DNA of 60,956 nt from Thainema sp. GTDB lineage: Bacteria > Cyanobacteriota > Cyanobacteriia > Phormidesmidales > Phormidesmidaceae. The stretch lies in assembly GCA_052168235.1 (NCBI GenBank), contig JBQLZK010000046.1, positions 1 to 60,956 on the forward strand, given 5' to 3'. A program made the position numbers and the translations under genes. Positions 7,501 through 60,956 of this stretch are shown one piece after another (positions within the stretch are counted from its first letter, which is position 1; the number at the start of each line of letters is the position of its first letter). The notes under the pieces were generated by a model. That model had not been told where the DNA came from, made no database searches, and saw only the letters and a program-made list of their open reading frames with translations.

Positions 7501-7597
7501 AGCATCAACTCTCAAACAACCATCACCTTTACAGCCTTTATAATTCTCTAGCTTCTTGCTCCTCACCTCTTCTACCGCTAGCCTAACCGATCTACAA

Positions 7598-7628
7598 GAA
7601 AAAACCCTCAACCGCTGGGATTGAGGGC
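7598..7628 (-). terminator. Rho-independent terminator downstream of the GMC gene
   Basis: CCCTCAA-TCCCAGCGG-TTGAGGG followed by a U-tract on the minus strand. Confidence 0.55.
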
Positions 7629-10130: not shown

Positions 10131-11799
10131 TGGCTAGCTCCTTTGTCGGATCGTTTGCAACCAAGGGTTCATCGCTGCCGTAGCCATAGGGAGGCGACAC
10201 GATAATTGGAATCTGCTCAAAATTTTCGTGGGGCGGCGGCGAAGACACCAGCCACTCCAGGCCAATGGCGCGCCAGGGATTGTCCCCCGCTTCCTTGCCG
10301 CGTACCCAGGAACTCACCATGTTCAAGATAAAAGGCAGCGTAGAAACGCCCAACAGAAAGCCACCTAGACTAGCCAATACGTTCCAGAACGCGAACTCTG
10401 GGTCATAGGAGGCCACCCGACGCGGCATCCCCATCAGGCCGGCGGGGTGCATGGGCAAAAAGTTGAGATTGGCTCCGATAAACGTCAGCGCAAAGTGCAG
10501 CTTGCCTAAGCCCTCGTAATACATGCGCCCCGTCATCTTGGGGAACCAGTGATAGATAGCGGCGTAGAAGCCCATCACCACTGCCCCGAAAATCACGTAG
10601 TGGAAATGGCCCACCACAAAGTAGGTGTTATTGACGTGAATATCGAAGGGAGCCGAAGCCAGCATCACGCCCGTGATTCCGGCAAATAGCCACATGACCA
10701 GACCACCTAAGGCAAACAGCATCGGCGTATTCAGCCGCAGCTTACCGCCCCAGATCGTTGCTACCCAGGAGAAGACTTTAATTCCGGTTGGGACGGAAAT
10801 GGTCATTGTCGTGATCATAAACAGCATCCGCATCCAGCTGGGAGTGCCGCTAGCGAACATGTGGTGAACCCAGACAATGCCGCTCAGTCCGGTAATGATC
10901 AGAGACGACACGGCAACGGCTCTGTAGCCAAAGAGAGGTTTGCGGGCGTAGACCGGAAAGACTTCCGAAAAAACGCCAAAAATCGGCAGAATGATGACGT
11001 AAACCGCTGGGTGGGAGTAGAACCAGAAGAAGTGCTGATACAGGACTGGGTCGCCGCCCAGTTCAGGGTTGAAGAAGCTAGTGCCGACCGTGAGGTCAAA
11101 CAGCAGCATTACGGCACCTGCGGTCAAAGCGGGTAGACCAAAGAGCTGAATTAGCTGAGCTGAGAGCACTGTCCAGCAGAAAGCAGGCATCTTAAACCAA
11201 CCCATGCCGGGTGCCCGCATCCGGAAAATGGTGGTGACAATGTTGACGGCACCCATGATTGAGGAGATACCCGACAGTGCCACCGCTAAGAGCCAGAGAA
11301 ACTGGCCGTTAATCAAATTGCCCGTTGGGTTCTGCAAGCTGACGGGAGGATAAGCCCACCAGCCGGACTGGGAGGGGCCACCAGGAATGAAAAAACTGGT
11401 AATTAAGATCACGCCAAAGACGGGCACGAGCCAAAAGGCTGCTGCATTCAGCCGAGGAAAGGCCATATCCCGCGCCCCAATCATCAGCGGTACGAGGTAG
11501 TTAGCCAAACCGTTGAGCATGGGAAACGTCCACATGAACAGCATAATTGTGCCGTGCATCGTGAACAGGCCGTTGTAGACCGTGCGGTCAACTAGATCCG
11601 CTTCTGGCGTAATCAACTCGCCCCGCATCACCATCGCCAGCAGTCCGCCAAACAGGAAGAAGACGAAGGCCGTGACAATGTATTGAATACCAATCACTTT
11701 GTGATCGGTGCTGAACGTGAAAAATCTGCGCCAGTTGTCCGGTGCCCCTGGTTGGGGCTGAAGACTGGTTGTTCCAGCCCCCAACGTGGCATTACTCAT
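10117..11799 (-). CDS. ctaD: Heme-copper oxidase subunit I
   Basis: DHKVIG, HGTIM, WFYSHPAVY, WVHHMF, HFHY; start taken at MSNAT. Confidence 0.96.
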   Translation of the reverse strand: MSNATLGAGTTSLQPQPGAPDNWRRFFTFSTDHKVIGIQYIVTAFVFFLFGGLLAMVMRGELITPEADLVDRTVYNGLFTMHGTIMLFMWTFPMLNGLANYLVPLMIGARDMAFPRLNAAAFWLVPVFGVILITSFFIPGGPSQSGWWAYPPVSLQNPTGNLINGQFLWLLAVALSGISSIMGAVNIVTTIFRMRAPGMGWFKMPAFCWTVLSAQLIQLFGLPALTAGAVMLLFDLTVGTSFFNPELGGDPVLYQHFFWFYSHPAVYVIILPIFGVFSEVFPVYARKPLFGYRAVAVSSLIITGLSGIVWVHHMFASGTPSWMRMLFMITTMTISVPTGIKVFSWVATIWGGKLRLNTPMLFALGGLVMWLFAGITGVMLASAPFDIHVNNTYFVVGHFHYVIFGAVVMGFYAAIYHWFPKMTGRMYYEGLGKLHFALTFIGANLNFLPMHPAGLMGMPRRVASYDPEFAFWNVLASLGGFLLGVSTLPFILNMVSSWVRGKEAGDNPWRAIGLEWLVSSPPPHENFEQIPIIVSPPYGYGSDEPLVANDPTKELASEHS

Positions 11800-12709
11800 A
11801 GGAATCCTCCTCTGAACTGGCGTAGTTAACAACAGGTGCTGGGGCAGGTTCTACGGTTGCCCAGCCCAGATCAATGGCAGCTTGCGCTGAGCGGTTAAAT
11901 TCGTCGTAGGCGACGTTGGGCGCAGGCGATGGCGGTGTCTCGGCGGCGGTCGCTAGCCACTGCTGATAGTCTTCCGCCGACTCCACAACTACATTGGTTT
12001 GATTCGCTGCAAAGTAAGTCCCGCTATACTGCGAATCTCGTATCCGATAGCGCCCTTCCCGCACAGGCGTAAACTGAAATTCGATTTCTTCGCCGGGTAC
12101 AACATCTTGCTTGATGCGGAAAGCCGGGATAAATAAACCATGCAGCACATCCTCCGAGGACAGCAGCAGCTTAGCTCGCTGATTCACGGGGACATGTAGC
12201 TCCGTGCTGCTAATGCCGTCGGGATAGCGAAATTCCCAAGCCCACTGCCGTGCATAGACTTTAATGGGTTCATCTGTGGCAGGTTTATCTATGCTTAGAG
12301 CCGCCGCTTCAGCGACAGGCATCCCCATTGCCATCGGTTCAATTGGCCCTAAGATGGCCATCCGCGCATAGGTCTGGTAGCTAAAGGCAGCAATCCAGAT
12401 GACTAACAGAATGGGAATGGCTGTCCAGATTACCTCCAGCGTGACGTTGCCTTCCACCGGGGGGCCATCGCTGAAATCGTATTTGCTGGCCCGCTGAAAC
12501 AGAACGGAGTAGAGCAGTGCGCCAGATACGCCAAAGAAAATAAAGCTGCCGATGGTGGTCATGAAGCTAAACAGATTGTCCACCAGCATAGATTCTGCTG
12601 AGGCTTGGGGCGGCATCCAGTTGTAGGCTTGCTGACCAATCCACAGGCTGAGAACCAGATCTGCGATCGCAAGTCCCACCAGCACCAAAATTGTGCGTCG
12701 TCGATTCAT
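11792..12709 (-). CDS. ctaC: Heme-copper oxidase subunit II lacking CuA ligands (ARTO type)
   Basis: LEVIWTAIP, QWAWEFRY, DVLH; the CuA motif is replaced by DSQYSGTYFAAN. Confidence 0.92.
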   Translation of the reverse strand: MNRRRTILVLVGLAIADLVLSLWIGQQAYNWMPPQASAESMLVDNLFSFMTTIGSFIFFGVSGALLYSVLFQRASKYDFSDGPPVEGNVTLEVIWTAIPILLVIWIAAFSYQTYARMAILGPIEPMAMGMPVAEAAALSIDKPATDEPIKVYARQWAWEFRYPDGISSTELHVPVNQRAKLLLSSEDVLHGLFIPAFRIKQDVVPGEEIEFQFTPVREGRYRIRDSQYSGTYFAANQTNVVVESAEDYQQWLATAAETPPSPAPNVAYDEFNRSAQAAIDLGWATVEPAPAPVVNYASSEEDSYE

Positions 12710-12714
12710 ATCTG

Positions 12715-13344
12715 CTACAGCCTCAAATGCTTGATCAACATATCCAGTTGGGTGTTGGGATTAATCCCTGCCCGAATCAGCCGATCGGCACTGATGTGAA
12801 CCCCAAAATCTGCGCCCAGATGTGCGCCCAATGTGCCCTGGAGAAACATCAGCACGAAAATAAACAGACCCGCGATTAGATAGCTCCACTGCACCTGACG
12901 CGCCCGATCCTGTCGCCAGACATAGCGCTGGAAACCGCGCCAGATGGTCATACCGACAATCAATCCTAACAGGAGGACACCACCTAGACCGTGCCAAATC
13001 ATGGTGTCCAGCGCGTTAAGCCCCCAGGGACTGACCATATCCTGCGGCGGATCGGCTAGCAGGATTTCGTAAAAGCCAGCCGCAACCGTAAAAAAGGTAA
13101 TAATTGCCGCCGCTACCATGTTGAACCAGCCGACATCGTAGAGATCCGAGCTAGTGGTGGTAATCGCCAGAAACTTGAAAATTGGCTTTTCCAGCGGATA
13201 GAGCGCCGCCACGATATCAAATGCGATCGCAACTATGAACAGCCCTAGGGTCAAATGCACTAGGTTGGGGTGAATCGGCAGACCATACGGTAATCCATTA
13301 GCTCCTAAACCCAAAACCATTGTTGGTAATCGTTCATCCATCAT
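12715..13344 (-). CDS. DUF2231 membrane protein
   Basis: PIHPNLVHLTLGLF; translationally coupled (TAATG) to the upstream paralog. Confidence 0.85.
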   Translation of the reverse strand: MMDERLPTMVLGLGANGLPYGLPIHPNLVHLTLGLFIVAIAFDIVAALYPLEKPIFKFLAITTTSSDLYDVGWFNMVAAAIITFFTVAAGFYEILLADPPQDMVSPWGLNALDTMIWHGLGGVLLLGLIVGMTIWRGFQRYVWRQDRARQVQWSYLIAGLFIFVLMFLQGTLGAHLGADFGVHISADRLIRAGINPNTQLDMLIKHLRL

Positions 13345-51875: not shown

Positions 51876-52640
51876 TTATGCCACGTCTAGGCCGATATCA
51901 AAGGTGCTAATATAGCCCTCCTCAGTCGGAGTGAGCTGCAGTGTAAGCTGATCGCCACCGTCTTGGAAAATGCGATCGCGGTTATTTTTAGTATCTTGCT
52001 GTCCCCGATTGTTGTAGGGAGCCTGCGCATAAACCTGATCGCTGAGAGCATCGTCAAAGTAAAGCTGCGATGTAAACTCGAAGCCCTGCTGAGCCGCTGC
52101 ATCACCGCGAATTTTGAAATGGATATGAGCGGTTCGTCCCCGATACCACCCTGGATAGATCGTCACAAATTCAACGGTGCCGTTTGTATCCGTCACCTGC
52201 GAACCGCGCAAAAACGTCTGGCCGACCGTATCGAAACTGCGATCGCGCACATCAGAATACATACCCTCCGCGTCGCAGTGCCAAATATCGACGACGGCTT
52301 CTGGCAGGGGGCTGCAAGCACCCGCATTCACTTGAGATACCCGCAGAACTAGCTTGAGCGGAACGCCCGCTTTACCTGCTCGGATATCGGAGCGGTTCAG
52401 AGCCTCGTCTACAAAATAGGGGCCTTCTGTTTGCTGAGGTTTAACCACACAGGTAGGCAAATCTGTTGCCTGCGCTACGGTCTGGGACTCAGTTTGGGCA
52501 ATGGCAGGTTGTGGGGCAGTGGACTGCTGACGCTGGCAGCCAAGCAGCGATACAACGGCAGTTCCACTGATGAAGCCCAACATTTTTCGGCGCTTGATCG
52601 TAGAGAAAGTAGAACCGACTGAACCGTGATTCTTGTTCAT
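51876..52640 (-). CDS. Intradiol ring-cleavage dioxygenase family protein, Tat/lipoprotein-like
   Basis: KRRKMLG...LLGC; TEGPYF, VDIWHCDAEG.YS, YPGWY.GR..HIHFK. Confidence 0.88.
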   Translation of the reverse strand: MNKNHGSVGSTFSTIKRRKMLGFISGTAVVSLLGCQRQQSTAPQPAIAQTESQTVAQATDLPTCVVKPQQTEGPYFVDEALNRSDIRAGKAGVPLKLVLRVSQVNAGACSPLPEAVVDIWHCDAEGMYSDVRDRSFDTVGQTFLRGSQVTDTNGTVEFVTIYPGWYRGRTAHIHFKIRGDAAAQQGFEFTSQLYFDDALSDQVYAQAPYNNRGQQDTKNNRDRIFQDGGDQLTLQLTPTEEGYISTFDIGLDVA

Positions 52641-52787
52641 AGGGGCTAAATTTCTGATGAATAAGCTTTTCAGCTGTGTGAACTGTTCAAGCTTAGAAAA
52701 TGCACCCCCCGATTGGGAGGCGGCAAAAGTCACGATCGCACCCATGACTTTGGTCATCATCTCTTGTCTTGTGCTGCTCATTGATTG

Positions 52788-52880
52788 TATAGCGGTTCTA
52801 GATAAGAACGAGAGAGGAGAGTGCCTCATCCTGAGGCACTCTCCTCTCTCGCTCTCTCACTCTTAACTGGAATCACTATA
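52788..52880. mobile_element. TA-flanked hairpin MITE, copy 2
   Basis: TATAGCGGTTCTAGATAAGAACGAGAGAGG...CTGGAATCACTATA; inverted homologue of 20534-20626. Confidence 0.8.
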
Positions 52881-54195: not shown

Positions 54196-54502
54196 AGTGG
54201 GGGCTCCTTGAAGAAATTGAAGAAATCAGTTGTTTACTTTGCTTTGATATCTATCGTGCCCGGATAGTCTGAACGGCCTCTAAACCTGATCTGAAGGTTG
54301 CTTAAGGTATAGATGAGAAACCTGAGCGCTGTTCTCAGCCAAAATTCAGAAATAACATCAGAAATGACAAAAGCTGTGAGCAGATGCGATCGCACCTTTG
54401 GCATTTGGTAAAAAGATCGCTATGTTTTACGCCTACTGCTTGCCACAATGCCCCCAATCAGGGAATATTTCTATTTATCTTTATAGAGTTGGTTGTTGTT
54501 CC

Positions 54503-54715
54503 ATGAAATTTAGCCAATGGCTAGTTGAAACGTTGAAGGCTAGAGAAATCACTCAAGCTGAGCTAGCACGAAGAATTGGAATTACGAAAGCGGCTGTTAA
54601 TCGCTGGACGCTAGGGCTGTCAGTGCCGACACTCAAAATCCATGAAATGAATCGACTGTGCGATGCGCTCGGTTGCGATCTGGAAGAAATTGCTCAGGTT
54701 GTCGATGAAGATTAA
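54503..54715 (+). CDS. XRE-family helix-turn-helix regulator
   Basis: ITQAELARRIGITKAAVNRW...LCDALGC. Confidence 0.85.
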   Translation: MKFSQWLVETLKAREITQAELARRIGITKAAVNRWTLGLSVPTLKIHEMNRLCDALGCDLEEIAQVVDED

Positions 54716-54884: not shown

Positions 54885-55868
54885 ATGCCAATGGAGACGC
54901 AGGGTAATATTCCGCTGATTGACTTTTCGCCGTTTTTGGCGGATGACCCGGCTGGGCAGCAGCGAGTTGCCGCAGAGATTTATCGTGCTGGTCGTGACGT
55001 TGGATTTCTGTATTTAACCCATCACGGCATTCCGCAATCCGCGATTGAGCAAGCCTTTGACCAGTCAAAGCAGTTTTTTGCGCTGCCACTGGCCGAAAAG
55101 CAGCAGATTGCTTGGTCAAGTGAGGTTAGCAATCGGGGCTACGTCGGTATTGAGCGGGAACGTCTGGACGAAACCCAACCTGGAGACCTGAAAGAAGCCT
55201 TTAATATGGGTCGAGAGGTGACGCCAGAGGAGGCCGAGACCACTGGAGCTGAGTTGGTGCTGAATCGCTGGCCAGAGAAGCAAGACAGATTTCGAGCTGT
55301 CATGACTGAGTTTTTTGACAGTTGTGCAGCGGGAGTGGAACGGATCTTTCGCGCCTTTGCGATCGCGCTTTCGATGTCTGCCGAGTTCATGGTCGAGAAG
55401 CACGCTACCCATAATTACACGCTGCGGCTGCTGCACTATCCCCCCCTTGCTGCGCCGCCCAAACCCAGACAGATTCGGGCCGGAGCGCATTCTGATTACG
55501 GCACACTAACCCTACTATTTCAGGACGATGTGGGTGGACTGGAGGTTTTGAACAGCCAGGGTGAGTGGATTTCTGCGCCGTCGGTGCCCGGTGCGATTCT
55601 GATCAATACGGGGGATTTAATGGAGCGCTGGAGCAATGATGTATTTCGCTCCACTAAGCATCGGGTTGGCCTACCATCCGCAGAAAAGGCGATGTGCGAT
55701 CGCTACTCCATTGCCTTCTTCTGTCAGCCGGATGCAGAGGCGGAAATCGTTTGCTTGCCCACCTGTCAGAGTGAGGATAATCCGCCCAAGTATCCACCCG
55801 TAAAGTCAGGCGATTATTTGCTCAGCCGTTTACAGGCCACTTATAAAGTTCAGGTGTTCACCAGGTAA
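54885..55868 (+). CDS. Isopenicillin N synthase-family 2OG-Fe(II) oxygenase
   Basis: IPLIDF, GFLYL..HGI, HSD...H facial triad, RYS motif. Confidence 0.92.
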   Translation: MPMETQGNIPLIDFSPFLADDPAGQQRVAAEIYRAGRDVGFLYLTHHGIPQSAIEQAFDQSKQFFALPLAEKQQIAWSSEVSNRGYVGIERERLDETQPGDLKEAFNMGREVTPEEAETTGAELVLNRWPEKQDRFRAVMTEFFDSCAAGVERIFRAFAIALSMSAEFMVEKHATHNYTLRLLHYPPLAAPPKPRQIRAGAHSDYGTLTLLFQDDVGGLEVLNSQGEWISAPSVPGAILINTGDLMERWSNDVFRSTKHRVGLPSAEKAMCDRYSIAFFCQPDAEAEIVCLPTCQSEDNPPKYPPVKSGDYLLSRLQATYKVQVFTR

Positions 55869-57977
55869 CTGACTTAATTCTGCTGGAGTCCCCGTGAGCT
55901 TTAGTTCGCCATGTTCAAGCAGCACAATCCAGTCGGCTCGCTGAATGACGCGGGGCCGATGGCTGATCATCAGGGTGGTTTTGCCCTGGCGATGCTGCAA
56001 AAGCTGATTGAGTACTTGCGTTTCGCTAATCGGATCGAGTGCGCCCGTCGATTCATCCAGGATCAGAATCGGTGGATCGGTGACAATGGCACGTGCGATC
56101 GCAAGTCGCTGTTTTTGTCCGCCCGATAAATTAGCGCCAAATTCACCCAGGACGGTTTGATATTTATCCGGTAGCTGGCTGATAAACTCGTCCGCTCCGG
56201 CAATTTGGCAGGCGGTGACAATCTGCTCGAAGCTGGCGTAGGGATAGCTGAGCCGGAAGTTTTCCAGAATGGAACGGCTCCAGAAATGCGGCTCCTGCGG
56301 CACCAGTACGACCTGCTGGCGCAGACAATCCAGCGCTAGATCGGCCTGGTTATACAGACCAAAGCGAATATTACCGGACTGGAGCGGATACAAGCTGGCA
56401 ATCAGTTTCGCCAGCGTACTCTTGCCGCAGCCAGACTTACCAATCAGCGCCGTCACCTGACCGCCCGGAATCGTCAAGGAAAAATCCTTCAGTAAATTCA
56501 CCCGTCCCGCATGGTGAAAGTTCAAGTCAGTGCAGACAATATCAGCATCGGCGGCCAGATCGGCCCAGGGTTTAGGGCTATCCTCGGCCACTTCTGGCGT
56601 CGCGTCAATGATATCGCCCAGTCGCTGCATGGCGGTTTTGGCGCGGGCAAACTCATCGACAAAGTTAATCACTGTATTGGTGAACAGCGTGAAGTTGCGA
56701 TACAGGGCATTAAACGCCAAAAGCTGGCCAATCGTGAGCGTCTGCTGAATCACCAGCCAACCGCCAAACCAGAGAATTGCGATCGCACCTACACCCGACA
56801 CTAAGTTGGACGTTACCCCGTTGAGAATCCCAATTTGCACAGTACGAAACGTAACATTGGCTAAGCGCCCAAAGCGTCCCTGTAGCTCATCCCAAGCCTG
56901 TGGTGCGGCGTGGGTGGTTTTCAAGGTCAGTGCCCCCTTAAACGTTTCCACCAAAATGCCCTGATTTTCCGATTCGGTGACGAGGACATCACGGGTCTTG
57001 CGCTGGAGCGTGGGCAGCAGCAGCAGCGTCGGCAGCGAGACAAAAAAGACAATAGCCAGAGCCGCCAGTGTCAACCGCCAGCTATACACCAGCATGATGA
57101 CGAGGGACACCAGCGCAATAAACGTTTCACTCGGTAGGCTAACCACCACCTGCGACACCAGCAGATTCACCTCGCGAATATCCCGCAGCCGACTGACAAT
57201 TTCACCGCTGCGATGGGATTCGTAGTAGCCCAATGGCAAGCGCAGCATCTGACGGCCAAAATCCAGCACCAGTCCCAACTCCAGCCGCTGAGCAAAGTGA
57301 GCAATCAGATTGGACTGGATGGCGCGCAGCACACTGCTAAAGGTAATAAGTGCGATCGCACCTACAGCTACCCTCGTAAGTAGCCGCACATCCCCCTGCA
57401 CCAGCACCTCATCGGTTAGAATCTGCACCACCAGCGGCAGCGCCAGGGAAAGCAGTCCCACAACAAGGTTCAGCAACAGCGCTTCGCCTAAAACACTGCG
57501 ATACGACCAAGCTCGCCGCAGAAAGCGCGTAAAGCCTTTAATCCGATCGCTGGGCTGACTATAAAAGCGCCCCTCATCTGGCACCAACAGCAGCATGACG
57601 CCATTTGCCCAGGCTTCAGTCAATTCCTGGCGCGACAGGTAGCGGATGCCCACGCCCGGATCGGCCACCACATAGCGCTTGCCTTTTCGCCCATGCAGCA
57701 CGACCCAGTGATAGCCTTTCCAGTGGATAACGGCGGGCAAGGGAGCTTCTTCGAGCCGATCAATTAGTTCGGGTGACGCTTTGACCGGACGAGCATCAAA
57801 GCCCAGGCTTTCTGCGCCGCGTCGCAGTCCCAGCAGGGTTGTGCCGAGCTGCCCTGTGCCAACAGCTTCCCGAATGCGGCTAATTGAAAGTGTGCGTCCA
57901 TAGTGCTTAGCGATTGTGGCTAAACAGGCTGCGCCACAGTCTTCTTCACTATGTTGCTGGACACACGTGTATCTCAT
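55830..57977 (-). CDS. C39 peptidase-containing ABC transporter (PCAT)
   Basis: QHSEEDCGAACL, HWVV and ADP catalytic residues; ABC TMD; GKSGCGKS, LSGGQ, LILDE. Confidence 0.95.
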   Translation of the reverse strand: MRYTCVQQHSEEDCGAACLATIAKHYGRTLSISRIREAVGTGQLGTTLLGLRRGAESLGFDARPVKASPELIDRLEEAPLPAVIHWKGYHWVVLHGRKGKRYVVADPGVGIRYLSRQELTEAWANGVMLLLVPDEGRFYSQPSDRIKGFTRFLRRAWSYRSVLGEALLLNLVVGLLSLALPLVVQILTDEVLVQGDVRLLTRVAVGAIALITFSSVLRAIQSNLIAHFAQRLELGLVLDFGRQMLRLPLGYYESHRSGEIVSRLRDIREVNLLVSQVVVSLPSETFIALVSLVIMLVYSWRLTLAALAIVFFVSLPTLLLLPTLQRKTRDVLVTESENQGILVETFKGALTLKTTHAAPQAWDELQGRFGRLANVTFRTVQIGILNGVTSNLVSGVGAIAILWFGGWLVIQQTLTIGQLLAFNALYRNFTLFTNTVINFVDEFARAKTAMQRLGDIIDATPEVAEDSPKPWADLAADADIVCTDLNFHHAGRVNLLKDFSLTIPGGQVTALIGKSGCGKSTLAKLIASLYPLQSGNIRFGLYNQADLALDCLRQQVVLVPQEPHFWSRSILENFRLSYPYASFEQIVTACQIAGADEFISQLPDKYQTVLGEFGANLSGGQKQRLAIARAIVTDPPILILDESTGALDPISETQVLNQLLQHRQGKTTLMISHRPRVIQRADWIVLLEHGELKLTGTPAELSQLPGEHLNFISGL

Positions 57978-58062
57978 TGATTTGCTGGCATTGGCTTATT
58001 TGATTAAAGACTACAGCAAAGTTACTTATTCCCTTCATCTGCATAAAAATGCAACAAAAAAT

Positions 58063-58100
58063 AAAGCTTCGAGATCTTTTATCAGACCACCGAAGCTTTA
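58063..58100 (-). terminator. Hairpin between the peptide genes and the PCAT
   Basis: AAAGCTTCG...CGAAGCTTT stem followed by a T-rich tract on the minus strand. Confidence 0.5.
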
Positions 58101-58129
58101 CTTTTCAGCCTAAAATACTTTTACTTAGG

Positions 58130-58282
58130 TCATCGAGCATCAAGCGCTCCTTTGACAAGAATCAACCGCCATATAGGTGATGTTCCAATTCCACTTCCTT
58201 GAAATTGCTCTTGTTGATTGTCCTCTAGTTCTTTCCACAGTTTTTTTGACTTCAATTCAACTTTATCTTTTCTAGTATTCAT
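58130..58282 (-). CDS. Double-glycine-type precursor peptide B (50 aa)
   Basis: AGGAG RBS; leader ...LWKELEDNQQEQFQGS, core GIGTSPIWRLILVKGALDAR. Confidence 0.7.
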   Translation of the reverse strand: MNTRKDKVELKSKKLWKELEDNQQEQFQGSGIGTSPIWRLILVKGALDAR

Positions 58283-58353
58283 GTTTTTCTCCTGGTTTAA
58301 ACTATGCGTCAATTTCTGAATTAATCTTGATCAAAGTAAAGGAGCCTAACCCT

Positions 58354-58560
58354 TTACAAAAGAATATGCTCTCTCGTCACTACTGAAGCTTCGCCTGCTA
58401 GCTTAGGCTTATAGTCAGGAACTTTGACCGACATGAACGATATCAATCCACCAGATAAATTTTCTGCTTTCTGTATACCAATCTCTGAAAATAGTTTAGA
58501 TGGTAGTTCTTTGAGAGACGGCCTGGAAATAGCTCGTTTCATGGCTTGCTCCATATACAT
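58354..58560 (-). CDS. Double-glycine-type precursor peptide A
   Basis: Leader ...LFSEIGIQKAENLSGG, core LISFMSVKVPDYKPKLAGEASVVTREHILL. Start codon uncertain. Confidence 0.7.
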   Translation of the reverse strand: MYMEQAMKRAISRPSLKELPSKLFSEIGIQKAENLSGGLISFMSVKVPDYKPKLAGEASVVTREHILL

Positions 58561-58602
58561 CTATATGTACTAAATTTATAATCTTGAAAAAGGGAAGAAA
58601 TA

Positions 58603-58668
58603 TCTTGCAAGTTCTTGTAGATTTTGCGAGTTGTTGCTGCTGTTGATACATTTCTTGAAGATTATTGC
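58603..58668 (-). promoter_or_regulatory. Tandem boxes upstream of precursor A (putative AraC sites)
   Basis: GCAATAATCTTCAAGA (58653-58668), GCAACAACTCGCAAAA (58622-58637), ACAAGAACTTGCAAGA (58603-58618); the last two are 19 bp apart. Confidence 0.55.
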
Positions 58669-59552
58669 GATCGCAAAAACTGTCTTGGCGTAAGACCCGT
58701 TGTTTTCTTGAAATGGTAGTTTAAGTGGCTCTGATGGGAGAACCCGCTGGCGAGAGCGATTTCGCTAATACTCAGTTTTCCTTCTTGCAGTAGCTGCTTG
58801 GCATAATTCACTCTTTGCTGAATAACGTACTGATAAGGGCTAATTCCCATAGATTGCTTAAACAAGTGACAAAAATAATACCGACTAACTCCTAACTGAT
58901 CTGCGATCGCTTCTAGTGATATGCTCTCATTTAAATGAGCCTGAATATAGTCGATCGCTGTTTGTAGCTTTGATTGCGATAAACCATCAGGATAGATTGA
59001 AATGATTTTCTGTTTGGTAGAGTAATGGCGTAGCAGATGAATACTTAGAAGGGTTGCAACAGCCTCGGCATATAAGCCACTGCCAGTTGGATTGATGGTC
59101 AGTTCTTGGATAAGAGCCAATACTATTTGGTAAATGAGTGGATCAGATTTACCAAAATATGATGTGAGTTCAACTTTATCTGGATCTAATTTTTCATAGG
59201 CAACGTGATGGACATATTCAGGTTCGAGGACTAAATGAATCGTTTCCATCTCTTGTTGCCAGCGATATTGGCGATACATCCCACTAGGAGCAAAGGAAAT
59301 ATCACCAGGGCAAAACTCAGCTGTCTGAATTTTACCTGCCATGATTTCTTCAATCTTGCACCCTTTAGGAAGCGTTATGAGGTGCTGAAGAACGGTACAC
59401 TCCGGTGTTTCAAACGGGGGATGACGATAAACTTCGAGTTTGATTCCGCGCCAATGGCTTTGATGGCTTGAGAGTAAGCACGATCTATCCAGCACACGAG
59501 AGAGTTCCTGTTCGTGGGTGAAATCAAGTTTTAACAGATCTTTGTCGGCCAC
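58662..59552 (-). CDS. AraC-family transcriptional regulator
   Basis: C-terminal double HTH (SRYYFCHLFKQSMG.SPYQY...GFSHQSHLNYHFK); GTG start. Confidence 0.95.
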   Translation of the reverse strand: MADKDLLKLDFTHEQELSRVLDRSCLLSSHQSHWRGIKLEVYRHPPFETPECTVLQHLITLPKGCKIEEIMAGKIQTAEFCPGDISFAPSGMYRQYRWQQEMETIHLVLEPEYVHHVAYEKLDPDKVELTSYFGKSDPLIYQIVLALIQELTINPTGSGLYAEAVATLLSIHLLRHYSTKQKIISIYPDGLSQSKLQTAIDYIQAHLNESISLEAIADQLGVSRYYFCHLFKQSMGISPYQYVIQQRVNYAKQLLQEGKLSISEIALASGFSHQSHLNYHFKKTTGLTPRQFLRSQ

Positions 59553-59584
59553 CGTTGGATTCCACTATTGGAAAAGCGCATACG

Positions 59585-60487
59585 TTATAAATTCAACCAG
59601 GTTTTGGGCGTCATGCCAGTTAAGCGCTTGAAATGACGATTGAGATGACTTTGGTGGGTAAACCCACAGGCTAAAGCTATCTCTGCCAGCGTCATGGAAT
59701 TCTGCTGGACCAGGCGCTTCGCCCGTTCTACCCGCTGTCGGGTAAGGTACTTATGCGGACTCAAGCCAGTTGAGCGCTTGAACGCACGACAGAAATAATA
59801 TTGGCTCAATTGTGCGATCGCAGCTAATTCCTGCAAACCCAGATCCTGCTCCAAATTATCGTTGATATAGTCCGTCACCAGCTTCAGCTTATGTTGCGAT
59901 AAACCTCCCTTGCAGTCTGACGTGCGATCGCGAACAGTTGAATAGTTGCGTAAAAGATGGACGGCTAGGGCGTTAGCCAGCGTTTCGGCATAAATGCGGT
60001 CAGAGCTAGCTTGCCGTTGCAAATCTGCCTGTAGAGCGCGCCCAATCTGATAAATTACTTTATCTCGAATGTTTAAGCTGGGCAGTAGCTCGATGCGATC
60101 GCACCTTAGTAACTCTGTAGCTTGTGAATGCAGCAACTCTGGCTTCAAGTTGAGGCTGAGTACCTGAGCATGGGTATTCAACTCAAGGAAATGAGAACGA
60201 TGAATCGGGCAAATTGATGCCGATCCTGACGAAAACGTAGACTCTTCACACTTGTTGTCAGTAATGCGTCTGAATTGACCACCTTCGGTTGGCCCCAACG
60301 CAATACTCACGACATAGTGATCTAAACAATATTCGGGTGTTGCGCCTGGCGGAATATTGAAAGTTTCTAAAGTGATGCTTCGCCAATCGGCATCATAGCT
60401 AGCAGTATCAGGTTCAAGGTCAATCAGTTCCGCTAGTCGTTTTGATTCATCAGAACCATTAATTTGCGATCGCGATAGAGTCATCAC
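59585..60487 (-). CDS. AraC-family transcriptional regulator
   Basis: SQYYFCRAFKRSTG.SPH...GFTHQSHLNRHFKRLTG.TP. Confidence 0.95.
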   Translation of the reverse strand: MMTLSRSQINGSDESKRLAELIDLEPDTASYDADWRSITLETFNIPPGATPEYCLDHYVVSIALGPTEGGQFRRITDNKCEESTFSSGSASICPIHRSHFLELNTHAQVLSLNLKPELLHSQATELLRCDRIELLPSLNIRDKVIYQIGRALQADLQRQASSDRIYAETLANALAVHLLRNYSTVRDRTSDCKGGLSQHKLKLVTDYINDNLEQDLGLQELAAIAQLSQYYFCRAFKRSTGLSPHKYLTRQRVERAKRLVQQNSMTLAEIALACGFTHQSHLNRHFKRLTGMTPKTWLNL

Positions 60488-60590
60488 TCAATCTCCTGGT
60501 CAATATCGCTTTCAGGTCGCACACATCAATCCTCTTACAGGATTTACCCAAAGCAATCAGACCGTTTTACGCAACGTTTTATTAACTTAT

Positions 60591-60626
60591 CAAAATCTCT
60601 GCCTAAACAGCAAATCTGTGCAAGAC
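60591..60626 (+). promoter_or_regulatory. Tandem boxes upstream of precursor C (putative AraC sites)
   Basis: AAATCTCTGC and AAATCTGTGC 19 bp apart; GCAAATCTGTGCAAGA fits the RCAA-N7-CAARA pattern of 58603-58668. Confidence 0.45.
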
Positions 60627-60709
60627 AGGCCAACGTATCTTCAATAGCCTATTGGTATGCCTATTAATGAATCTAGCCTATTTCACTATCTTTGAGTGGA
60701 GCTAAACAG

Positions 60710-60859
60710 ATGAAATGCCAGCCTTCCAAATCAGCTAATTCAAAATCTAAAAAGAATAAACTTTGCCCTGAAGATCAACTATGGCAACCCCTAGATACTG
60801 ATCAGTCAGAATCTATTTCCGGTGGATTGGTTCTGCTGTTTGCGAATCCTTTTGCCTGA
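60710..60859 (+). CDS. Double-glycine-type precursor peptide C (49 aa; not in the ORF track)
   Basis: Manual translation: MKCQPSKSANSKSKKNKLCPEDQLWQPLDTDQSESISGG-LVLLFANPFA*. GGAG RBS; followed by an AATATGTAG...CTACATATT hairpin. Confidence 0.7.
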   Translation: MKCQPSKSANSKSKKNKLCPEDQLWQPLDTDQSESISGGLVLLFANPFA

Positions 60860-60956
60860 GAATCTACAGTCAATATGTAGGTTGGGTTGAATTCGGCTAC
60901 ATATTATAGCGATTCCTGAATGGGCAAGGTACGATCAATGTAGAGGAAAAGCCACA

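Follow-up and report, generated by a model that had tools for sequence, protein, structure and literature searches.

A cyanobacterial locus for AraC-linked double-glycine peptides whose cores copy segments of conserved proteins

What do small peptide genes carry when they lie between two AraC-type regulators and a C39 exporter, and for whom would their products be meant? The question is raised by the right end of a contig of the cyanobacterium Thainema sp. (GenBank assembly GCA_052168235.1, contig JBQLZK010000046.1). The stretch of DNA that we analysed, called the window here, is this entire contig (C46; 60,956 bp), and it forms part of a genome of 7,542,204 bp in 205 contigs (G000). An earlier note, made from the letters of the window without database searches, had described at its right end a pair of AraC regulators, three precursors of double-glycine (GG) peptides named pepA, pepB and pepC, and a peptidase-containing ABC transporter (PCAT). 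All six open reading frames (ORFs) are present at the positions it gave. PCAT, pepB, pepA and the two AraC genes are on the minus strand, and pepC is on the plus strand:

55830..57977, minus strand: PCAT, 715 aa; Pfam PF03412 Peptidase_C39, PF00664 ABC_membrane and PF00005 ABC_tran, in this order
58130..58282, minus strand: pepB, 50 aa; ATG at 58282, ORF open to 58312; GS site, 20-aa core
58354..58542, minus strand: pepA, 62 aa; ATG at 58542, ORF open to 58560; 30-aa core
58662..59552, minus strand: AraC1, 296 aa; cupin-type N-terminal domain and two helix-turn-helix (HTH) motifs; Pfam HTH_18/HTH_AraC
59585..60487, minus strand: AraC2, 300 aa; cupin-type N-terminal domain and two HTH motifs; Pfam HTH_18/HTH_AraC
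60710..60859, plus strand: pepC, 49 aa; ATG at 60710, ORF open to 60692; 10-aa core

Core peptides of the window

The leaders of the three peptides end in GG, GS and GG and are followed by cores of 30, 20 and 10 residues without cysteine. In these respects, as in the layout of the genes, the ORFs and their translations agree with what the earlier note had described. Its statement that the cores are unrelated is not supported in that form: all three end in copies of segments of conserved housekeeping proteins (the match in pepA being weak). The pepC core repeats, at 10/10 positions, the C-terminal 10 residues of ATP synthase subunit c as encoded in the same genome (AtpH, 81 aa; Pfam ATP-synt_C). 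The eight-residue end of this core has one match in 292 of the 401 cyanobacterial genomes sampled, and in G000 the end of AtpH is a second match; a reversed control gave one match in total. The last 11 residues of pepB are identical (11/11) to a segment of PsaB (E = 5e-5, tblastn against the whole genome), the source being residues 535-545 of a 737-aa ORF that Pfam assigns to PsaA_PsaB. The last seven residues of pepA equal an EF-Tu motif (7/7), and residues 4-15 of its core resemble a gp19-like tube protein (8/12).

The nucleotide sequences tell how these identities have been kept. Between pepC and atpH, seven of the 10 codons differ, and between pepB and psaB seven of the 11, all of them synonymously. 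We rejected recent copying of a gene fragment from atpH or psaB, or gene conversion, on this comparison. Because the codons have diverged synonymously and the amino acids are unchanged, the copies reflect selection on protein sequence, not recent copying.

The same pattern appears between genomes. A homologue of pepC (E = 7e-10) is present in G001, a genome of the same genus, where a single AraC gene is followed by the pepC orthologue and then by a second GG peptide gene. The two orthologues have no amino-acid changes and five synonymous codon changes in the core, and 22 amino-acid changes in the leader. In contigs of four DNA runs that cover 57900-60956, pepC has one difference (60827 T>C), which is synonymous. 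A search of a collection of 5.8 billion proteins matched pepC to itself only, and pepA and pepB have no significant homologue in 60 relatives. No NCBIfam or Pfam model fits any of the three.

The preferred start codons, ATG at 58542, 58282 and 60710, each stand behind a Shine-Dalgarno-like GGAG. The leaders have the properties of double-glycine leaders (a GG, GS or GA end, hydrophobic positions and an adjoining C39 transporter), and in other genomes dozens of small ORFs next to orthologous PCATs begin with leaders of this type. Their occurrence here exceeds chance. A regular expression made from the window leaders has 359 matches in the genome (0.48 per 10 kb), and a filter for polar leaders leaves 29 of these, five of which are in the window locus and on contig C113, to which we return below.

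Other genes of G000 and elsewhere carry related segments. A cluster on contig C29 (about 62865-63800) contains a T4 gp19-like tube protein (Pfam Phage_T4_gp19), and segments of two adjacent genes of this cluster resemble parts of pepA and of a peptide from genome G198. Genome G332, an assembly of 1150 contigs, has two separate genes with the ending of an ATP synthase subunit c, on the short contigs C793 and C816, which might reflect a duplicate of the gene or a mixture of strains.

Mosaic arrays in related genomes

The earlier note had proposed a search of cyanobacterial genomes for neighbourhoods of this kind. We found AraC genes, a PCAT and small GG-leader ORFs together in seven genomes from four cyanobacterial families (G000, G001, G133, G231, G220, G503 and G198; PCAT-type loci). 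The AtpH C-terminal motif stands behind a GG leader in G001, G133 (in two peptides), G231, G220 and G503, and as a one-residue variant in G198; in G133, G231, G220 and G503 this is the second match to the motif in the genome. The PCATs of these loci are 73-94% identical to the window PCAT, and each locus has an AraC of the same subfamily. The arrays hold 5-9 peptides, whose cores are mosaics of near-exact copies of protein segments. The segments come from the loop and C-terminus of AtpH; from PsaA/PsaB, with the FX-binding loop among them (18/18 in G231); from the N-termini of phycocyanin beta (CpcB) and EF-Tu; from ribosomal protein S10 and thioredoxin; from a pilin helix; from the coiled coil and C-terminal strand of SLH-porins; from a DUF4157-type metalloprotease motif; and from proteins of the gp19-type cluster. 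Protein ends match peptide ends: the N-termini of CpcB and EF-Tu are copied directly after the cleavage site, and the C-termini of AtpH and the porins at the end of the peptide. In G000, DUF4157-type proteins with the copied metalloprotease motif are encoded on contigs C34, C8 and C59.

We took 40 regular-expression matches from six loci and dropped 11 that lay within larger ORFs or had no polar leader, which left 29 cores. Fourteen of the 29 match a G000 protein at E < 0.01, compared with 3 of 145 shuffled cores. Another 45 PCAT loci have no AraC gene in the stretch examined. Among 57 cores from 34 PCAT loci without AraC, five have a match at E < 0.01, three of them on one site of a 1556-aa ORF, and none matches these housekeeping proteins.

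That 1556-aa ORF (G000 contig C25, site at about 68404-68457) shares a motif of 12-18 residues with several GG cores, also in AraC-free loci; the loci whose cores have it are L098, L099, L074, L292 and L291. A conserved peptide type with two cysteines, for which no source protein was found in G000, is the first or an early peptide in five arrays (L096 5969-6148, L280 6362-6544, L291 7579-7752, L277 5312-5509 and L275 1702-1896). It was not seen in the G000 and G001 arrays, both of which are cut by contig ends.

Across seven orthologous pairs of peptides, we counted 32 amino-acid changes in 233 codons of the cores and 66 in 245 codons of the leaders. The usual pattern in such clusters, as described in a survey of cyanobacterial bacteriocin genes, is that cores show very little conservation (PMC3140520), so cores that are more conserved than their leaders reverse it. 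At 4 of 18 positions, the CpcB-type peptide departs from the CpcB of its producer. A metagenome scan for the AtpH C-terminal motif gave at least 120 stretches; among the 140 matches listed (20 genome loci included) were c-subunit genes and chance frames, none seen in the context of a GG leader.

The copied segments also occur in a second form. Two further genomes, G120 and G519, have an AraC2-like gene with the box described below, followed by a multi-segment precursor of 158-181 aa and then by a protease of the PatA/PatG family, and there is no PCAT at either locus. The precursor strings together a copy of the AtpH loop, a copy of the porin coil and a copy of the AtpH C-terminus. The proteases of G120 and G231 score 751 and 731 bits with TIGR03895 (curated cut-off 421), and the G519 protease is 86% identical to that of G120. 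The arrays of G133 and G231 likewise have proteases of this type beside them. The long-precursor family comprises 28 clusters in a large protein collection, all annotated as hypothetical and without Pfam or NCBIfam matches, and it is rare (2 of the 401 sampled genomes at E <= 1e-6). In 15 aligned members of 158-193 aa, from several genera, both the AtpH-loop copy and the AtpH C-terminal copy are kept. Because some GG cores of G220 and G503 equal the long precursor minus its first ~38 residues, the same cargo occurs with two kinds of leader.

In a quick phylogenetic tree of PCATs, the AraC-linked transporters form two well-supported groups that mix families, and one pair from families f1 and f16 is joined by short branches. 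The AraC label requires three changes on this tree, and none of 500 shuffles was as low by the same quick method. In the window, GC content is about 0.55 in the PCAT gene and drops to 0.36-0.39 in the genes for the peptides and AraC1. Taken together, the mixing of families in the tree, the low GC and the insertion sequence (IS)-like border described below point to horizontal spread of the locus.

Regulators, exporter and the ends of the locus

Both regulators have the C-terminal HTH pair and N-terminal sensor domain of the AraC/XylS family. They are paralogues (37% identical). The single AraC of G001 is 47% identical to AraC1 and 39% to AraC2, AraC1 is 52% identical to the AraC of G198, and AraC2 is 63-66% identical to those of G133 and G231. 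Since the AraC2 type is divergent from the peptides in G133 and G231, and the AraC1 type is followed by peptides and PCAT in G198, the window combines two arrangements that other loci have one at a time. An AlphaFold model of AraC2 (predicted local distance difference test score, pLDDT, 89) consists of a cupin barrel, a linker and two HTH motifs, and its closest folds in the PDB are ToxT, Rns, CsvR, CuxR and AraC. When the AraC N-terminal domain was used to search for related loci, it retrieved two only.

An element of about 35 bp, containing two direct repeats at a spacing of about two helical turns, precedes the first cargo gene in seven loci. It lies in the divergent spacer between AraC and peptide genes or right at the AraC stop codon. 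A position weight matrix (PWM) built by coordinates from five loci scores 44-54 in those five and 29.9 in G001. On both strands of all G000, five sites score at least 15, and two of these are in the window:

58602..58636, minus strand: operator-like box of direct repeats, between AraC1 stop and pepA; PWM score 17.0
60592..60626, plus strand: operator-like box of direct repeats, upstream of pepC; PWM score 17.9, the second-highest in the genome

AraC subfamily, box and cargo are found together in 9 of 9 loci (the seven PCAT-type loci plus G120 and G519). Elsewhere the box has other company. At L129 (contig C22 of genome G126, about 7580-7613) and L035 (955-5478), a box scoring 42.8 lies upstream of an AraC2 orthologue, points away from it and faces a 1507-aa ORF with a zinc-metalloprotease-like motif. 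On contig C85 of the same genome (L132, 7377-10026), a box after an AraC2-like gene is followed by ORFs of 377 aa and 457 aa, with no mimic peptides. This type of AraC and box thus seems to drive other, non-peptide genes too.

The PCAT has the three-domain architecture of its family. In an alignment of its C39 domain with PCAT1 (4RY2/7N87) and ComA the catalytic Cys column is kept, as in an active peptidase and unlike an inactive C39-like domain; 7N87 is an inactive Cys-to-Ala mutant at the column where the window PCAT has Cys. We took the His and Asp positions from the PCAT1 alignment and presume them to have their usual catalytic roles. With this column intact, and with the leader type recurring beside orthologous PCATs, the pairing of double-glycine peptides with a C39 exporter in the earlier note is supported, and the PCAT is predicted to cleave and export GG-leader substrates. 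It is 94% identical to its G001 orthologue and is the only gene in synteny between the two congeners. In G001 its other neighbour is an 816-aa protein with CHAT and CHASE2 domains (L033, 7314-9764, minus strand), in the place that an oxygenase gene has in the window. A gene for an HlyD adaptor is present in G198, G503 and G220, and a remnant of one is on C113.

Three further features border the peptide genes and the PCAT:

54885..55868, plus strand: 2-oxoglutarate (2OG)-Fe(II) oxygenase (Pfam DIOX_N and 2OG-FeII_Oxy), convergent with PCAT and overlapping its 3' end
58055..58099, minus strand: terminator-like hairpin and U-run between pepB and PCAT; folding energy -27.5 kcal/mol (z = -5.56; none of 200 shuffles folds as well)
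60902..60956, no strand: IS-like terminal repeat, the last 55 bp of the contig, with 18 matches in the assembly, many of them at contig ends

We considered the oxygenase as a conserved tailoring enzyme and rejected this, since BLAST searches of the ORFs did not find it in the other six PCAT-type loci; the earlier note's statement that there is no tailoring enzyme holds within the window. A Nodosilinea metagenome-assembled genome with neither PCAT nor peptides has a gene 76% identical to the oxygenase gene, at a distance of 5 kb from an AraC2 orthologue, and the oxygenase is probably an old neighbour of AraC2. A simple promoter and terminator scan listed fewer sites than in its shuffles and did not list the hairpin after pepB. 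Further upstream are genes for an XRE-type HTH protein (54398-54715, plus strand) and a Dioxygenase_C-domain protein (51876-52829, minus strand), with no link to the locus seen.

The contig ends 97 bp past pepC, within the terminal repeat. Because it ends inside an 18-copy repeat, the locus is cut, and positions 60902-60956 probably form the end repeat of an IS-like element present in multiple copies. Contig C113 ends in similar sequence. Beside that end are five more GG peptide genes, all on one strand (11644-12875). Their products hold copies of the N-terminus of CpcB, of a porin coil and of the FX loop, and also of the DUF4157 motif and of S10/PsaA-like segments. Next come an HlyD gene reduced to its first ~90 residues and, after it, unrelated kinase genes; a complete HlyD paralogue is on contig C41. 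This layout resembles that of G503, G220 and G198, where AraC and peptides are followed by HlyD or PCAT. The C113 peptides and HlyD remnant are therefore probably the other half of the window locus, split off by the IS-like element.

Proposed action, alternatives and known systems

We think that the window is best explained as half of an AraC-controlled export locus for unmodified GG peptides whose cores are mosaics of near-exact copies of the best-conserved short stretches in abundant cyanobacterial proteins and which would interfere by mimicry, and we give this reading a probability of roughly 0.4. Built on the gene architecture, the leader type, the intact catalytic column, the mimicry under protein-level selection and the conserved cis element described above, it would work as follows. 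AraC1 and AraC2, each with a cupin sensor and two HTH motifs, would bind the boxes and turn on the peptide genes in response to a ligand. The C39 domain would cleave the precursors after GG or GS, and the PCAT with an HlyD adaptor would export the cores. Once outside, the peptides would compete with the segment they copy for the partner it naturally binds or the place where it assembles, candidate sites being the c-ring/Fo of ATP synthase, the photosystem I (PSI) core, the insertion signal of outer-membrane proteins, the pilin helix and EF-Tu. The likely targets would be neighbouring cyanobacteria, and the peptides would make up a bacteriocin-like interference cocktail.

The final step, interference by mimicry against other cyanobacteria, is the least certain, and we put it forward only tentatively. 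We favour it because the arrays look like cocktails, the distribution is patchy as for a weapon, the CpcB copy departs from the producer's own CpcB, and there is a precedent in microcin H47, a GG-leader peptide described as acting on the Fo proton channel of ATP synthase (PMC10233263). In a more general form, the proposal is of a natural class of peptides: literal segment copies, shuffled into mosaics, under protein-level selection, driven by AraC and box, matured by a PCAT or by PatA/PatG-type proteases, and acting by sequence mimicry, either as interfering peptides or as imitations of damage fragments read by AraC. We would place this just short of an even bet.

Several points weigh against our reading. 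Both matches in pepA are weak when taken alone (genome-wide E 0.3-0.4). Binding of AraC1 and AraC2 to the putative operator boxes is suggested by their position and conservation. The AraC subfamily occurs in 139 of the 173 genomes of the order, in many copies, and the box also lies beside AraC paralogues next to unrelated genes. From the commonness of the subfamily and the presence of the box beside other genes, we regard the AraC type as generic and its link to this cargo as specific. The claim of the earlier note that the peptides are under dedicated AraC proteins is supported, as a functional tie, by the constant association with cargo and by the boxes before pepC and pepA. The G000 locus looks damaged, as the IS-like repeat cuts it and the adjacent HlyD gene is a 5' remnant, and the C46-C113 junction is not bridged by the contigs of the four DNA runs (short pieces over 57900-60956). 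Neither an immunity gene nor an importer was recognised among the Pfam-annotated neighbours. Because the producer's AtpH and PsaB carry the identical segments, self-protection is unexplained, and because EF-Tu, S10, thioredoxin and CpcB are cytoplasmic, an exported peptide copying them would need to be taken up. Finally, the tight link to AraC and the matching of protein ends with peptide ends suit a signalling role equally well.

Such a role, raised in the earlier note as a possible pheromone with effectors, is the strongest alternative. One or more exported peptides, such as the pepC core, would be detected in turn by AraC1 or AraC2 through the cupin domain and induce the operons; in a sharper version, the sensors evolved for breakdown fragments of abundant proteins, as a 'danger' signal of stress or lysis, and the peptide genes are a secreted amplifier. 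We consider this unlikely, though nearly as likely as interference. It would account for the company of AraC, box and cargo at all nine loci regardless of exporter or protease, for the box directly upstream of the cargo genes, and for the placing of CpcB and EF-Tu N-termini and AtpH and porin C-termini at the corresponding peptide ends. The pepC core is short and hydrophobic, the AraC fold resembles those of ToxT and Rns, whose cupin pockets bind hydrophobic ligands, and the PatA/PatG-type proteases beside some arrays could free short fragments. On the other hand, 5-9 different peptides per array are many for one or two AraC proteins, a rare, patchy and horizontally transferred locus would be unusual for a core stress sensor, and the CpcB-type peptide does not follow the producer's own CpcB. 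We also know of no AraC regulator that binds a peptide.

The cargo might instead be directed at the producer itself, the peptides or long precursors modulating its own complexes (for example, ATP synthase through the copies of the c-subunit loop and C-terminus) with export secondary. The persistence of both AtpH copies across the 15 aligned members of the 158-193-aa family, and the lack of an exporter beside the long precursor in G120 and G519, would fit. But that family is found in only two of the 401 genomes, the GG forms adjoin a dedicated exporter, and the copies derive from many unrelated proteins, all of which makes self-directed regulators quite improbable.

We give slightly less credence still to an ordinary cyanobacterial GG-bacteriocin cluster whose resemblance to host proteins is a by-product, for example of captured gene fragments serving as hydrophobic filler. 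GG arrays beside PCATs are common in cyanobacteria according to the survey cited above (PMC3140520), and the low GC and the IS-like element at the border would suit such capture. It fits poorly with the synonymous divergence from the source genes at unchanged amino acids, with the same segments recurring in different mosaics in nine loci and at least four families, with cores that outlast their leaders, and with the matches of 14 of 29 cores against 3 of 145 shuffles. That the small ORFs are not genes at all is very improbable: pepA and pepB lack homologues in the 60 relatives, but the changes between pepC and its G001 counterpart show the mark of purifying selection, the leader consensus, Shine-Dalgarno-like sites, promoter boxes and terminator are all present, and pepB has the 11/11 PsaB copy in frame behind its GS site.

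How does the locus compare with known systems? The cyanobacterial bacteriocin clusters of groups I-VII described by Wang et al. in 2011 (145 clusters with 290 precursors) likewise have C39 transporters with nearby GG precursors, and differ in that their cores are little conserved; the words 'AraC' and 'regulator' do not occur in the text of that paper (PMC3140520). EbfG1-4 and PteB of Synechococcus elongatus PCC 7942 are another cyanobacterial case: small unmodified proteins with a GG motif, encoded in one operon, whose secretion requires the catalytic Cys of the PCAT. As published, they are set apart by enabling biofilm formation, by regulation that is stated to be unknown, with no AraC involved, and by the lack of any reported copies of housekeeping proteins (PMC4997328). 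The view of the earlier note that no characterised cyanobacterial system has this layout therefore stands for AraC, which is involved in neither published system, and must be qualified for the rest, since EbfG1-4/PteB is a characterised GG-peptide/PCAT system. For systems of that kind, the window offers a testable candidate AraC operator and the first candidate regulators.

Among other bacteria, class II microcins such as H47 and ColV share the GG or GS leader, C39-coupled ABC export, an HlyD adaptor and several unmodified peptides per locus. The window locus, known here from its sequence, is unlike them in its cyanobacterial host, in cores that copy host-type segments, in AraC and box, and in that no immunity gene was seen. 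Cyanobactins resemble some of the related loci, in which a protease that passes TIGR03895 (G120, G231) or a related one (G133, G519) lies beside the cargo; these four are the only loci with such proteases. The window itself has no PatA/PatG protease, no heterocyclase was seen, and its type of cargo is also found behind GG leaders and beside a PCAT. On the regulatory side, ToxT and Rns match AraC2 over the full length of the fold (cupin barrel, helical linker and two HTH motifs) at 12-15% sequence identity, and their ligands are fatty acids.

In full-text searches of the literature, supplements apart, we found nothing on AraC-linked GG peptides in cyanobacteria and did not find the AtpH C-terminal motif as a peptide string. 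The export machinery is of a known kind; for control by AraC and box, and most of all for the principle of the cargo, we found no published description. The cargo of GG peptides is usually seen as arbitrary and hypervariable; here it is the conserved part, copying bioenergetic, translational and envelope proteins. If the copies act by mimicry, this would be a new way for phototrophs to compete or communicate, and would supply ready peptides with which to probe ATP synthase, PSI, pilus assembly and the insertion of outer-membrane proteins in cyanobacteria and plastids. Interference by imitation has relatives elsewhere. Darobactin, a modified RiPP (a peptide made on ribosomes and altered after translation), is a beta-strand mimic that interferes with its target; we know of no natural exported family of literal protein-segment copies. 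Synthetic Pept-ins share the principle that a segment of a target protein interferes with that target. Pept-ins are designed molecules, and if the copies described here work by mimicry, they would be a precedent from nature for aiming fragments of proteins at those same proteins.

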